From: a virus
Taxonomy: Duplodnaviria; Heunggongvirae; Uroviricota; Caudoviricetes
Direction: 5' to 3' (one strand)
Length of the DNA stretch: 64,000 bases
Virus record (IMG/VR): IMGVR_UViG_2880395615_000002
Shown: positions 1 to 9,000 of the stretch, in pieces
Numbering within the stretch: the stretch's first letter is position 1
Layout of the letters: the number at the start of each line of letters is the position of its first letter
Program-made: the position numbers

Positions 1-3000
1 CCTGAATGCTGGCGTTGGCGAACATGTACAGCGAATTCATCAGCGCCCCCTGCTCACCACGACGGTTAAAGTTCACCGTCATGTTTTTGGCAAGAGACGC
101 CGCCTGCTGGCGTGACAAACCGGCATCACGGGCGTGCTTATAGGCAGAAAGACGCAGAGCGTTTTCAACCGCACCGTTGGCATCCTCGACAAGGTTAAGG
201 AACGAATTCCATGCACCGATACTCTGGCCTTTCCATCCCCCCTTCGCCAGTGAGACAAGGCGATCCATTTCCTTCTGCTGGCCTTCAAGGTCACCCATGT
301 TAAACCAGCCGGTTTTCCCTCCGTCCTCAACAAACTCTTTCCACACCTTCTGCCACTGTGCACCTTTTCCCGTGAGGGTTTTACCACGCAGACTGGCGTA
401 TACGGCTGACATGGCAGAACGGCTGTCTTTCACCACAGCCAGGGCGGATAAGTTATCCAGCCCTTTCAGTTTACCGTCGCTCCTTCCCTGCTCCGCCTTC
501 AGGTTCATCACCGCCGTCTGCACGTCACGGATGAAGTTACTGACCAGGAATTCCGGGTTATACGACGTGTTCACCGTTGCCAGGAAGCGGTTAACTTTCC
601 CCAGCGTGCGGATTACGGCGTTACTGGTTTCCGGTCCCATATTCTTCATCGCACGCATCAGGCGCGGGTCATGGAGTTTGATGTAGTACGTTTTGCCGTT
701 CTTTTTGGTGGTGAAGTACCGGTCTGCCATCATTGCCATCGCCACCGGACGCTCGACAACTTCGCGAATGGTTTCACCAGTTTCCTGGTCCTTGCGCTCT
801 GCAATCACACGCATGGTATCCGGTCTGTCATCAGTGAATACCTGCCAGTAATCCTTGTCGGGATTATCCTGTACCAGTTTCAGGAAGGCGTTACCCACTT
901 CGTTTTTGCGATGGCGGATCAGCGATTCGCTCAGGTCCTGTATCGCCTGAGTGGACGGAGACTGTGCACGGGATGCACGCCCCATGGCCTGCCTGCTTTC
1001 ACGTCCGCCGATAGTGAAGCCCTTACCTGTACGGGGCAGTGACACCACACCGTCAATATCCTGACCTTTCAGGGGAACGTAGTAACGGTAGGCGTTCTGC
1101 CAGGCATCCACCACACCACTCTCTTCAAGTCCAGCCTCACGGATAAGCTCACGGCGACGGGCCAGCATATCGTCAATAATCCCTGCCAGACGGTCATACT
1201 GTGCCTGTTTGCCACTGTTACGTACACGCTGCATGATTTCCGCCGCTTCCGCGTTGGTCATCCCCGAACCGCCGTCCGGCATTTTCGGGTTGATTTTCGC
1301 GATATGCGCGTTACGTTCCGGCGCGTGACGGGCGTAGAGGTACTCATCCAGATCGGCCTGCGCAATTTTGTAGTCCGCCAGTAATTTAGCCAGTGGCTGA
1401 ACGTAGCGCTCCTTCATCACGTTCAGGTCGTTTTCCGCCTTCCCGTGGAAGAGTTCTTCCGCCATATAAGCGTTGTTACTGTCGTCTATTTTTCCGCCAG
1501 TTTTACGGATGTTCTCCTGAACAGCTTTCAGCACCTGGAATTTATCCTGCATCTGACGCACAAAACGCGATGCAATTGTCTCTTCCGGTGTCAGACTGCT
1601 GGTACGGGAGTAATACGGCCCCTTGCGAATATCTTCAGGATAGAGTATTTTATCTACAGAGCCGCGATAAGAACGCTCCTCTTTGGGCAATTGAAGCCCA
1701 CTGTACTGAGGGTTATCGCGGCTTAATTTTTCCTTCCGGTAAAGCGTCAAACCTGCTTTATCCAGGCTATTAGCTTTGTTCATCCCCCCTTTTGTTCCAT
1801 ATACAGAAGCCACCTTGTTAATTTCTATTCGTTTATCTGTTGCCTTCATGTGCACTGCCGACACCACCGGATCACCATTTTTATCCACGGCATCAAGCAG
1901 CATCACAACCGCATTTCTTTCTGTCGCGGAACGGTAAATTGCATCCGGATCGTGCATCAGTTCCGGTAGTCTCTCGATAACATCCATCGGCACCACATGT
2001 TTCACTCCATTGGTGGCCTTACGCACAGTGTCGCGGGAGATAACCAGCGGCAAATCTGGTGCGCCAAGGTGACGCAATACCGGCGGCGTACGCCCGATGT
2101 TTACCGTTAAATCTGTGGTGCGCAGAGACTTCATCATTCTGGCAAGGTCATCACGATAACGCTCGCCCTCACCTTCCGGCACTTTGAACGGATCAGGCTT
2201 ACCGCTACGGGAGTACTGAGACGATGCGCCAGCGCCATCCTCACGCGGCGTGTAACCTTCCCGCACACGCTGGCCTAACGTGCGAATAGTTTCGCGAACA
2301 AGTCTGATATCGTTCAGCTCTGTCGGCTTCAGTAACCCCGTGCGACGCAGTACCCCTTTGACCAGGGCAACAACACGCTCCCACGCCGCCACAAATTTAT
2401 TCGGCTGTTTCTCCGCCATATGTGCCAGAAATTCACCTGCCTGCACTTCCGGTGATTCCTTACCATAAGACGCATCAACCTTACGCCAGGCGTCACGGAT
2501 GGTGGCGTTATCACTGTCACGGGTTTTCAGTACGGTCTTAATAATCGTCTGATATTCCGCTGGCGTGACTACATGCTCCATTGCATGGTGAATAATCTCG
2601 TGACGTAACTTCTCGCGAACGGTCCGCCCGTCAGGGATGTTATCCGCCACCAGGACAATTTCACGTTTATCCGGACGATAGAACGCGTGCACCTTGCCGT
2701 AACCGTCGAATGATTCACCCGCCAGTGCTTCAGCCTCTTTCTGTGACTTCACCACGCGGACCTTCAGGTCACTGTCCTTAATGCCACTAATCACGCCACG
2801 GGCAACAGCTTCAACCTGCGGGACCGGACTGCCTTTGGCTTCCGCACTGCGGTTAACATCCGAAATCAGATTGCCTTCAGGTGTGCGGGTCACGCCCTTA
2901 CGGGAATAAAACGCAACTCCCTTGTCCGTCTCACGGGTTTTCAGTGTTCGGAACAAGTGATCGAATGCCTCACGAATACCGCCATCCAGTTCTGCATTCG

Positions 3001-6000: not shown

Positions 6001-9000
6001 CCCCCATCGCAGCACCAAGGGCTGCACCTTCGATCGTTGCGTCAGCCACGCCCTCCCACGGCGACACATCCATTCCGGCGGTATCACGCAGTGCCATGTT
6101 TTCCTGATAGCGTGAATAGCCGCCCTGCGCCGCATTAATCGCCCCCTGTTCAGTGGCGTTTCTGATCATGCCGCTTTTAACGGTATTCGCCGTGCCCCGC
6201 ATCGCCAGATTAAGCAACTGAGCATCGCCCAGTTTTGCCGCCATGGCATTCACAGCCAGCAACTGAGGATCGGTTGCCAGTTGCGCACGCACCTCATCAG
6301 CCACACGCTCTTTTGCCAGGTCCATTTTCTGGCGATCAGTAAGCTGTGCGTGCTGCGGGTCGGCGTCAATGGACAAAAACGTCTGCTGAAATTTCGGTGA
6401 CTGCGCCAGCTCAGAGTAATCCGCATTAAGAACAGCATCTGCTGCCGCCATTGCACTCTGCCCCTGTGCACTTACTGTGGAATGGGTGATCAGGCCCGCC
6501 CGGAATAAATCCGGCATTTTTTTATCGACAGCTTCTGCTGCCAGTGCCGTGGCTCTTTCCGGCTGCATCCCTGCCGCGATGTATTTTTTCTCCAGCCCGG
6601 CGGTCAGCATTTTTCGCAGTGTGACATCACCCACCTTTTTAGCCACACCGCCAGCAAACACATCTGCCGCAACGGCACCGACAAAATTCATCCCCTTCGT
6701 CAGCCAGACTGCGGGATCATCATAGCCTTCACTCATTGGCGTATTCAGCGCACGCACAGCACCCGGCGACATATTATCGGTCAGCCATTCATCCGAGGCT
6801 TTAGCACCATCACTGACAGCCTTACCGGTTGCCTTCAGACCTTTACCGACAGTATCAGTAACCGCGTTTTTGCCATCAGGCAGGGTATCGATGACCTCAT
6901 CAGCCCCCCTGCTGCCACCGGCAAAAATATCCTGCACAGTTGCGACACCCGGCAGCCCCATACGGCTGAACTCATTTAAAATACGCGCCCCTGTTTTTAC
7001 CGGGCTCTGAATCATCGCATCACCGAGTCCACGGGCCATTTCCCCTGTTCCCCGGACGGACTGGGCGAAACCTTTACCCATTGTTGGCAATACATCGCCC
7101 AGGCTGAACGACGTACTGTTATCCTTCCAGCGATTCGGATCAGAGAAAAATGCTTCATAGCTGTCAGTTTCGCCGGGTTGCTGAATGTTCAGGCTGTTAC
7201 GATTCTGGTTACCGAGTTGCGCCTCAGGACGCTGTTCCTCTGAATAGGCCATACAGACTCCATAAAAAAACCCGGCACAATGGCCGGGCATCAGGAAATG
7301 GTATTAATGGAATATCGTGAATTACTGGGCGTAATTCTGTTTCAGTCCACGGATAAACTGAGATGCAGATGAAGCACTTTCATCTCTGGCCTGTTCCCCC
7401 CTGGCCTTTTGAATACGGAGAAAATTCGCATACCCGTTCTCCAGCAATTTCTGATTCTGAGGTTCCAGCATTTCAGGCTGACGGGCCGCTACATTTCTGG
7501 CAAATGACAGCTTATCAGGATCATCTCCCGCCCAGTTGATAACCTGTTGCTGAAGTTTTTGTTGCTGAATTTTCTGTTGATGCGGTTGTGAACCAGTCGC
7601 AGCATAATATTCATCCACCGCAGCCTGAGCATTACCGCCATTCTTGATCGCGTCCGCCGCTACGTTGCTGGCCCCCTTCTGAAGCTCTTTCAGAGAAAGT
7701 CCCTGCTGCTTCGGCATAAAATAACCATAATTTTTCGATATCTCTGCAAATTTGCTGCGATCCCTGACCTGAGCGATAGCCTTATCAACGGGTATCGCCA
7801 GCACGGTTTGATCATCAGGGTGCGCACTGCCGTATTCTGTTACAGGTTTATGCGCGGTGGAGCCATCGCTGTATGTGAGATCAAGGCCAATAAGTACGTA
7901 CCCTTCCTGCTGCGCTGGTACGATACTGCCAATCCTGGCCTCTTTTATCGTTTTTTCCCCGGTTGAATCAGGCATGCCAATACGCTGTTGTAGTTCCGGG
8001 GCAAACACGCCGGAAAGCACATCGAGATTTTCCGGGGTATTCAGCGAATCGATCGCCATGTCCGGCTTATCACCAAAGATTTTTTGCAGGTTGATCACGG
8101 CCTGACCCGCTTTCGCTGCATAGCCTTCGTTTGACATAAGAATTAATGGATGTCCCTTTGGCAGCTGCCCGAACAGACGCGTTGCAGCCTCCTGATCGCC
8201 AGCCTCAATTGCTTTTCCAAGCGCTTCCATTAGTGGCTGGCTATGGGCAATCATATCGTTATACTCAAGCCGTCGCTGGTTGTATTTCTGCAACTGGAGT
8301 CGTTGCTGTTCCATCCCCAGCGACGCATTCCGGTAATTCTGGTTAGCGTTAAACTCCCTTTCCTTCAGTGCATAATTACGGTCGTCAACTTTGGCTCTGT
8401 AATCAAAGTTCCGCTGATCAACGTTTTTATTATGTTCAAACTGAGACTGCGCAAACTCAAAATCGCGCTCGTTATTTTTCTGTTGCCGGGCAAGCTGTGC
8501 TTCACGCAGACCAAGCTCCTTACGACGGGTCATTGCCTGGTCAACGGTGCTGAATCCGGCAAGTACCCCCTGTGCAAATCCGCTCATTCACCACTCCTTA
8601 AAACAAAGAACCAGCAATGCCGCCAATTACTGCTCCAGCAACAGCACCAACAGGACCACCAACGGATGCGCCAATAGCCACCCCCGTACCAATGCCCGTA
8701 CCGATATTCTGCTTGTTCTGCGCTTTCTGTTGCGCCGCCATCTGTTTGTTCGCAGCCTCAATTTCTTCACGTCGTCTGTCTGCGTCACTTATTCCCTGTA
8801 ATGCCTCACGCCGCGACTGATTTGCAATATCCAGTAAACCGTATCCCATATTGCCCCCTTACGCTGCCACCAGTTGGCCGCCAACACTCAGTTTCTGTCT
8901 TGCCGGTGCAGAAGCCCCCGTCAGAATATTCATCTGGCGATCCTGTTCGGCTTCACGGATACCATTTTTCGCGCCAGCAATTGCCAGGGCATTACGTAAC

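Follow-up and report, generated by a model that had tools for sequence, protein, structure and literature searches.

The window analyzed here, a 64,000-nucleotide stretch of the IMG/VR virus record IMGVR_UViG_2880395615_000002 (Caudoviricetes), contains on its minus strand most of a giant gene that closes the late operon of a short-tailed Traversvirus. The preliminary description of the window had proposed a single reading frame that opens at 7252 and continues unbroken to the window edge for more than 2,400 codons. Translation of the minus strand of positions 1-7252 bore this out, yielding 2,417 sense codons and zero stops, a run with a chance probability of ~1e-48 at the base composition of the region. 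The remainder of the gene was recovered from an identical phage record, which adds 377 residues beyond the edge and gives a full length of 2,794 amino acids from the ATG at 7252, or 2,807 amino acids as annotated. The G+C content of the giant gene is 54.4%, compared with 48.0% for the 64-kb window. Residue numbers are counted from the ATG at 7252 throughout. The features of the gene are as follows.

1..7252, minus strand: giant open reading frame, residues 1-2417 of a 2,794-amino-acid protein, the last 377 amino acids of which lie past the window edge
7263..7289, minus strand: terminator-like GC hairpin and T-run, within the 69 nucleotides that separate the gp48-like gene from the giant gene
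7252-7250, minus strand: ATG start codon, with a GGAG ribosome-binding site at 7261-7258, read from the sequence
5933..7252, minus strand: N-terminal module, Ala/Gly-rich, residues 1-440
4553..5932, minus strand: low-hydrophobicity region rich in E, Q, R, P, A, and G, residues ~441-900
3728..4552, minus strand: LPD5 module, N-terminal part, residues ~901-1175
2918..3727, minus strand: predicted zincin peptidase domain 1, residues ~1176-1445
3389..3403, minus strand: HEWFH, residues 1284-1288, where model helix 132-152 begins
2183..2815, minus strand: zincin-like domain 2, residues ~1480-1690 (roughly 210 residues)
2588-2602, minus strand: HEIIH, residues 1551-1555, a second HExxH that the preliminary description overlooked
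1736..2005, minus strand: MuF_C domain, a PBECR-type predicted RNase, residues 1750-1839
1..1615, minus strand: first 538 residues (1880-2417) of a C-terminal module of ~915 amino acids

The 7.25-kb DNA is 100% identical to that of the Shiga toxin 1 (Stx1)-converting phages AU5Stx1, AU6Stx1, and SH2026Stx1, the gene itself corresponding with 100% identity to NC_049920.1 H3H25_gp85, and it is 90-97% identical to that of 933W, phi24B, P13374, POCJ13, and others. Matches to the giant gene were obtained in 186 phage records, each with a query coverage of at least 80%, and the gene was present in 425 of 5,426 complete Escherichia coli genomes under the RefSeq name "LPD38 domain-containing protein." The window product shares 96.5% protein identity with gp47 of phi24B (vb_24B_48), and on sequence grounds the giant open reading frame is the ortholog of gp47 and of the giant open reading frame of 933W. 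Substitutions relative to phi24B cluster at residues 788-887 (19 substitutions) and 1288-1387 (13 substitutions), with the latter cluster corresponding to an insert within zincin 1. The late operon contains, upstream of the giant gene, the tail-fiber genes, lom, and four small genes without known function. An IS1203-family insertion interrupts the giant gene in E. coli O157:H7 strain F6321 (NZ_CP038369.1), and the gene is therefore dispensable for prophage retention. None of this is new as an object: hundreds of database entries contain the gene, the family and its metallopeptidase (MPTase) clade were described in 2017, and occurrence of the protein in virions was reported in 2026. The present analysis is thus a refinement rather than a discovery: it adds a corrected domain map, with two unrelated zincins, an apparently intact PBECR-type predicted RNase, and the placement of LPD5 and LPD1 on either side of a peptidase core, as well as evidence for the packaging of each module, the pattern of constant terminal modules around changing cargo, and a better-supported start codon.

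The RefSeq/GenBank start of the gene corresponds to window position 7291, 13 codons upstream of ATG 7252. A GGAG sequence is located five bases upstream of ATG 7252, and directly upstream of this GGAG-ATG the hairpin GCCCGGCCATTGTGCCGGGT at 7289-7270 (7 pairs, 6 of them G-C) is followed by TTTTTTT. Given that the annotated start lies inside this terminator-like hairpin, ATG 7252 appears to be at least as plausible and may be the better supported of the two. An N-terminal gp47 peptide that would fix the start codon was not found in the available part of the phi24B peptide supplement.

Pfam assigned four domains well above gathering scores: LPD5 (1051-1200), LPD1 (1361-1440), MuF_C (1750-1839), and LPD38 (2477-2682), the last of which falls outside the window. 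These four are signature domains of the polyvalent proteins (PMC5512222). Unrelated enzyme domains and LPD domains were found together in one large polypeptide, and we assign the giant protein on its sequence to this group, which Iyer et al. named "polyvalent proteins" in 2017. The domain calls, taken together with the abundance of the phi24B ortholog in purified virions, agree with the earlier suggestion that the gene encodes a very large multidomain virion protein. A Pfam scan of the full protein at E<=10 returned no peptidase family and covered neither HExxH motif; no lysozyme, transglycosylase, or peptidoglycan-binding domain was detected in the scan of the full protein, and no helicase or methylase of the restriction-related kind present in DarB was detected in Pfam scans of the giant protein. 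Sequence searches of the PDB with residues 1-450, 1041-1440, 1441-1880, and 1880-2794 and with the A2 profile gave chance-level matches only.

The first zincin had been noted in the preliminary description as a peptide with an HExxH motif, GEVAINLTKGNGPGALAHEWFHSLDNYFG, in a zincin-like context. The peptide is present, with HEWFH at residues 1284-1288, and the proposed context held up in that the motif is invariant in distant homologs and the predicted fold matches zincin peptidases. With residues 1191-1540 as the query, 1,077 homologous proteins were retrieved, many of them stand-alone proteins of 450-610 amino acids that carry LPD5 and LPD1. In alignments of 35 and 93 such sequences, with ~40-50% identity to the query, H1284, E1285, and H1288 were invariant, as were H1263, E1265, D1291, D1362, Y1369, E1375, R1379, and E1382. 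Conservation is continuous, beginning in the C-terminal end of LPD5, including the motif, and reaching into LPD1; the LPD5 and LPD1 models therefore flank, and in part cover, one catalytic domain of residues ~1176-1445.

A structure model of zincin 1 was obtained with AlphaFold2 on the basis of the 93-sequence alignment (predicted local distance difference test score, or pLDDT, 91.9; predicted template modeling score 0.91). It shows, in order, a helix, a three-stranded sheet, the HExxH helix, an insert of ~70 residues, and a helix carrying E1375, R1379, and E1382. The HExxH helix thus follows a three-stranded sheet and a putative third ligand is located on a later helix, as in zincins. The closest solved folds were those of MtfA, anthrax lethal factor, and the Pro-Pro endopeptidases (PPEPs), at an identity of 12-13%. 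Iyer et al. described a "widely distributed" MPTase of phage type in which strand 2 ends with a conserved His and HExxH is followed three residues later by an Asp, and also reported an HHpred link between the MPTases of polyvalent proteins and lethal factor (PMC5512222). Both phage-type features are found in zincin 1, with H1263 located in model strand 112-115 and D1291 three residues after H1288, each invariant among the 93 sequences, and zincin 1 therefore fits the phage-type MPTase clade as judged from alignment and model. The predicted catalytic set would be complete and of the gluzincin type, consisting of H1284, H1288, and a Glu from the conserved helix that follows as metal ligands, with E1285 as the general base; the conserved residues H1263, D1291, and Y1369 are predicted to line the pocket. 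Given this complete set, zincin 1 is most likely an active, site-specific endopeptidase of the lethal factor/MtfA/PPEP structural type that acts on defined sequences. With regard to MEROPS families M34 and M90, no sequence match was obtained in Pfam or the PDB, and the likeness is structural only.

The second zincin, at HEIIH, was detected by an exhaustive HMMER search in 384 cluster representatives, mostly proteins of 1,500-6,000 amino acids. The consensus over 143 aligned domains, LRHE[VIL]xxH[HY]GL, corresponds to HExxxH, which is the other MPTase variant mentioned by Iyer et al. (PMC5512222). A one-residue deletion in the clade of the window restores the HExxH spacing, with the result that HEIIHH can be read as either HExxH or HExxxH. 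H1551, E1552, H1555, and E1607 were conserved at or near 100%, and E1614 at ~92%; E1607 and E1614 are carried by the downstream AGEFLAHMAE helix. The modeled core, with pLDDT values of >84, supports a zincin fold. The hidden Markov model for PF18818 (MPTase-PolyVal, ArdC-type) matched neither zincin even at E<=10. Comparison of zincin 1 with zincin 2 by hhalign revealed no relationship (probability of 0.6%), on which ground an origin of the two by domain duplication was rejected; as judged from their sequences, they are unrelated and belong to different clades. Zincin 2 was also found as a stand-alone protein of 230-245 amino acids without Pfam annotation, and in fusions with zeta-toxin kinases and with the ArdC-N/primase proteins of conjugative elements.

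The MuF_C domain was called with an E value of 9.9e-18 and 64.6 bits, compared with a cutoff of 27.6. His and Ser form the catalytic pair of MuF-C, and the MuF-C of phage Mu is thought to be inactive (PMC5512222). In the giant protein, His1752 is conserved in every aligned homolog with the domain and Ser1816 in every one that reaches that far, and the domain therefore looks catalytically intact as a predicted RNase; it does not correspond to the metallopeptidase. The phi24B preprint (bioRxiv 10.64898/2026.04.10.717836) labels it "MuF-C metallopeptidase," a label that conflicts with both Pfam and the definition of Iyer et al. 2017, in which MuF-C is a BECR-fold RNase domain. The E. coli and Salmonella partial sequences P0124, P0130, and P0138 diverge sharply after '...RSGKPDPFK' into a different MuF-C allele and then rejoin the common sequence, as if Stx-type prophages had exchanged alleles of the predicted RNase domain.

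The enzyme-like domains lie between two terminal modules, residues 1-440 and 1880-2794, for which only PHROGs of unknown function matched over these spans as a whole; residues 1-440 had no Pfam match. The N-terminal module is closed by a glycine zipper at residues 409-426 (nucleotides 5975-6028) and, being always first in related giant proteins, is a candidate packaging or ejection module. It is followed by residues ~441-900, with a hydrophobic fraction of 0.12-0.24 per 50-residue block, which probably form a disordered linker. The region starting at residue 901 begins where the stand-alone LPD5-zincin-LPD1 proteins begin, and KKIEDFGEEIKGAAK there fits the pattern MxxIxDFGxxxxGAxK. The C-terminal module runs beyond the window into LPD38, which contains hydrophobic segments; only one segment of the giant protein exceeds a Kyte-Doolittle mean of 1.2. 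A PHROG labeled 'DarB-like antirestriction' matches residues 1894-2066 only, within this shared C-terminal module. A DarB-type antirestriction function was considered and rejected, given that no SNF2-type helicase or methyltransferase was detected and that the PHROG match is confined to residues 1894-2066.

We surveyed 118 long proteins containing zincin 2. The N-terminal module was always first where detectable (38 of the 118), the C-terminal module was always last where detectable (also 38, 19 of them with LPD38), and the middle region was variable. Cargo in relatives included an SNF2/strawberry-notch helicase with LPD39 in one protein and a methyltransferase in another, and the MuF-C of some E. 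coli alleles is of a different variant. In Salmonella enterica (P0127 and P0143), an insert of ~300 amino acids, annotated in P0127 as a phosphoribosyltransferase, separates LPD1 from zincin 2 and looks like a cassette-like gain of cargo in an otherwise collinear ortholog. In uncultured phages, zincin 1 forms fusions with MuF head-morphogenesis domains. Stand-alone LPD5-zincin-LPD1 genes were present in Alphaproteobacteria such as Gemmobacter caeni (L002 8001-9725; L003 8001-9701), in a conserved neighborhood with an H-NS-like gene upstream and, downstream, PcfJ and a 1,700-amino-acid AAA_34/Helicase_C_4 (SNF2-type) helicase. Judged from its gene content, this neighborhood looks like the leading region of a conjugative element rather than a prophage. 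The overall architecture, as read from these sequences, is one of fixed terminal modules with interchangeable cargo between them.

The preliminary description had named mass spectrometry of virions as a check on the prediction, and published data for phi24B, the gp47 of which is the 96.5%-identical ortholog, are of this kind. The protein was detected in purified virions but was not seen in the T=9 cryo-electron microscopy map, and it was proposed to be an ejection protein (bioRxiv 10.64898/2026.04.10.717836). In the available portion of these data, gp47 accounts for 10,962 peptide-spectrum matches (PSMs), second only to the major capsid protein with 17,998 (bioRxiv 10.64898/2026.04.10.717836). 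Its PSM counts are highest in the four bands at the top of the gel, higher up than the 724-amino-acid portal protein. Its peptides, for which the supplement gives total PSMs per peptide and not per band, span residues 19-2770 with similar counts across every module and include both HExxH-containing peptides as well as MuF-C peptides. From this end-to-end coverage and the top-band peak, it follows for the data available that every gp47 module is packaged and that most gp47 appears to be uncleaved in the virion. PSMs per residue relative to 12 portal copies gave a crude estimate of ~15-25 gp47 copies per virion, to be read as an order of magnitude, given that the same normalization underestimates the capsid protein 1.5- to 3-fold. 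The length of gp47 is given as 2,811 amino acids in the Results of the preprint and as '>3,000 amino acids' in its Discussion.

As the last late gene, with an ortholog abundant in virions, the giant gene is probably best explained as encoding a capsid-packaged polyvalent protein of short-tailed 933W/phi24B-type Stx phages that is ejected with the DNA and whose zincins cut proteins. The giant protein would reside inside the oversized T=9 capsid and exit via the tail together with the DNA. The two terminal modules would serve in packaging, ejection, and membrane passage, the glycine zipper at 409-426 and the hydrophobic segments of LPD38 being the candidate parts, and the central enzymes would be at work in the newly infected cell. 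Zincin 1 would cut proteins rather than the cell wall; its targets might be the long linkers of the polyprotein, cut after ejection to free the cargo, or host proteins, or both.

Several points weigh against this explanation. Activity, metal binding, cleavage, and injection are predictions, both for this protein and for its close homologs; how the metal site is arranged, and which of E1375, E1382, or D1291 is its third ligand, are predicted rather than measured; and no Pfam peptidase model, not even PF18818 MPTase-PolyVal, is matched by either zincin. The peak of gp47 at the top of the gel indicates that self-processing, if any, must come later than assembly of the virion. Both zincin modules also occur as stand-alone proteins, with nothing else to release, and trans-acting effectors therefore fit better than pure self-processing. 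The stand-alone modules and the apparently intact gp47 of the virion incline us toward activity in trans, and the presence of two proteases among cargo domains beside a 460-residue linker inclines us toward self-processing.

A host-directed effector and nothing more, with injected zincins that cleave host proteins such as those of defense or superinfection exclusion and no processing of the polyprotein, is the alternative that survives best, and we regard it as possible yet somewhat unlikely. The nearest folds, those of lethal factor, the PPEPs, and MtfA, belong to trans-acting, site-specific peptidases; anthrax lethal factor, for example, cleaves mitogen-activated protein kinase kinases. Some of the stand-alone zincin modules lie in neighborhoods resembling conjugative elements without a polyprotein to process, gp47 appears to be largely intact in virions, and an effector role is among those listed in Iyer 2017 (PMC5512222). 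The occurrence of two unrelated zincins among cargo, near a linker of ~460 residues, is however the layout expected for self-processing, and a host-effector role does not exclude the explanation that we favor. More specifically, the two zincins and the RNase of a ~300-kDa protein injected by the most widespread Stx phages may all hit host targets and not the protein itself, a scheme that we offer tentatively and hold to be rather improbable.

The preprint on phi24B proposed that gp47 forms a trans-periplasmic ejection conduit and that its metallopeptidase digests peptidoglycan. A podovirus needs an extension of its tail, gp47 is packaged yet invisible in the reconstruction, and the glycine zipper and LPD38 hydrophobic segments could accommodate such a channel. 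The peptidoglycan component, however, rests on the mislabeled MuF-C domain; no cell-wall hydrolase was among the listed structural neighbors of the zincins, nor did the Pfam scan reveal a lysozyme, transglycosylase, or peptidoglycan-binding domain. We consider the conduit as a whole improbable, and degradation of peptidoglycan, the weakest of the proposed mechanisms, is not supported.

An internal structural or scaffold protein, tape-measure-like or core-like, with inactive relics of enzymes would accord with the very high abundance of gp47 in virions and with the presumed inactivity of the MuF-C of Mu itself. It is nevertheless very improbable, given that homologs of 25-50% identity retain every catalytic residue of the two zincins and of MuF-C and that cargo is swapped between relatives, which would be unexpected for a purely structural protein. 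Tape-measure proteins are long, mostly helical rulers of long-tailed phages without a conserved catalytic core. A tape-measure-like region with no catalytic domain, the finding that the preliminary description had named as fatal to its proposal, is ruled out by the conserved catalytic-type residues; a tape-measure protein was rejected on the grounds that Traversvirus is short-tailed, that three domains have invariant catalytic-type residues, and that no Pfam or PHROG match to tape-measure proteins was obtained. Finally, the giant surface or membrane 'fitness' protein of the lysogen envisaged in the 2012 phi24B genome paper, for which a leader peptide and membrane-spanning segments had been predicted, is hardly tenable and was rejected, given that the protein is found in purified virions by mass spectrometry and encoded by the last gene of the late operon, that the 'leader' probably corresponds to the 13-codon extension within the terminator-like hairpin, and that only the one segment passes the hydrophobicity threshold.

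The genes upstream of the giant gene in the window are the following.

7322..8587, minus strand: 421-amino-acid gene, ortholog of phi24B gp48, virion-associated; phrog_601, no Pfam match
8598..8849, minus strand: gene for an 83-amino-acid protein, RefSeq 'bacteriocin', with a C-terminal glycine zipper at residues 50-83
8859..10039, minus strand: two further short genes of the late operon, orthologous to phi24B gp50 and gp51, whose products were both detected in virions

The preliminary description had taken these neighbors for internal or ejection-type proteins with glycine-zipper tails. The virion association of gp48, gp51, and gp50 supports the first part: in the portion of the phi24B data available, gp48 has 1,634 PSMs with a peak at the expected gel position, gp50 has 129, and gp51 has 523. 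The tails are clear in the 83-amino-acid protein and weaker in a 218-amino-acid protein, and none was found at the C-termini of the 421- and 150-amino-acid proteins. The 83-amino-acid product matched Pfam Gly-zipper_YMGG with an E value of 3.7e-5, under the gathering score; in the same data it is present in trace amounts (13 PSMs) and is regarded in the preprint as a contaminant. The phi24B supplement, in the part available, labels gp48 only 'Transcription factor?', and the main text of the preprint contains no discussion of this protein.

Several open reading frames of 60-177 amino acids, such as those at 2941-3198 and 4432-4965, overlap the coding sequence of the giant gene in a different frame or run antisense to it. 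Some were annotated as genes in the older GenBank records HM208303 and AP005153, and one internal frame of 134 amino acids has 2 PSMs in the available phi24B data, which is at noise level. These internal frames are probably spurious. The sole tRNA gene in the window encodes tRNA-Arg (anticodon CCT) at 56460-56534 on the plus strand.

Short-tailed Stx phages spread Shiga toxin genes among E. coli, and the giant gene constitutes ~14% of their genome; in the available phi24B data only one virion protein exceeds its product in spectral count. Location of the catalytic domains (two zincins, an apparently intact predicted RNase, and no cell-wall peptidase) provides a guide for the design of point mutants, namely E1285A, E1552A, and H1752A, and a domain label is corrected in the only experimental paper on the protein. 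If the zincins do act on the host, a cleaved defense or superinfection-exclusion protein could help to explain the broad host range of these phages as well as the ability of phi24B to superinfect its own lysogens, and LPD5-zincin-LPD1 would represent a portable anti-host protease common to phages and conjugative elements. Interest in the protein would increase further if its proteases proved to target host defense proteins.

Comparison with known systems places the giant protein among several others. P1 DarB and DdrB as well as the virion RNA polymerase of N4 are giant, capsid-packaged proteins delivered with the DNA, as is proposed for the protein of the window, and both the N4 polymerase and DdrB carry MPTase domains (PMC5512222). 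The helicase, methyltransferase, and RNA polymerase domains of these proteins were not detected in the present one, whereas some relatives with the same terminal modules have a helicase or methylase. The ejection proteins of podoviruses, namely gp7, gp16, and gp20 of P22 and gp14, gp15, and gp16 of T7, are carried inside the virion, leave it together with the DNA, and bridge the cell envelope. The role proposed here is similar, but no sequence similarity to them was found in Pfam, PHROGs, or the PDB, and a single polypeptide of 2,794 amino acids with three enzyme-like domains takes the place of three smaller proteins. Likeness to lethal factor and PPEPs (M34) and to MtfA (M90) is restricted to the fold, with zincin 1 differing by its insert of ~70 residues between the catalytic helices. 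Relative to the MPTases of Iyer 2017, zincin 1 shares the phage-type signature and the Glu on the next helix, and zincin 2 belongs to a family with HExxxH; both are likewise located in a giant protein encoded beside virion genes, but neither matches PF18818, and Pfam splits zincin 1 between LPD5 and LPD1. In comparison with the gp47 map in the preprint, the metallopeptidase is not MuF-C, and there are two separate zincins with folds that do not point to cleavage of peptidoglycan. The orthologs in phi24B (gp47), 933W, VT2-Sakai, and AU5Stx1 are the same gene and share its place at the end of the late genes, behind the orthologs of gp48-gp51.

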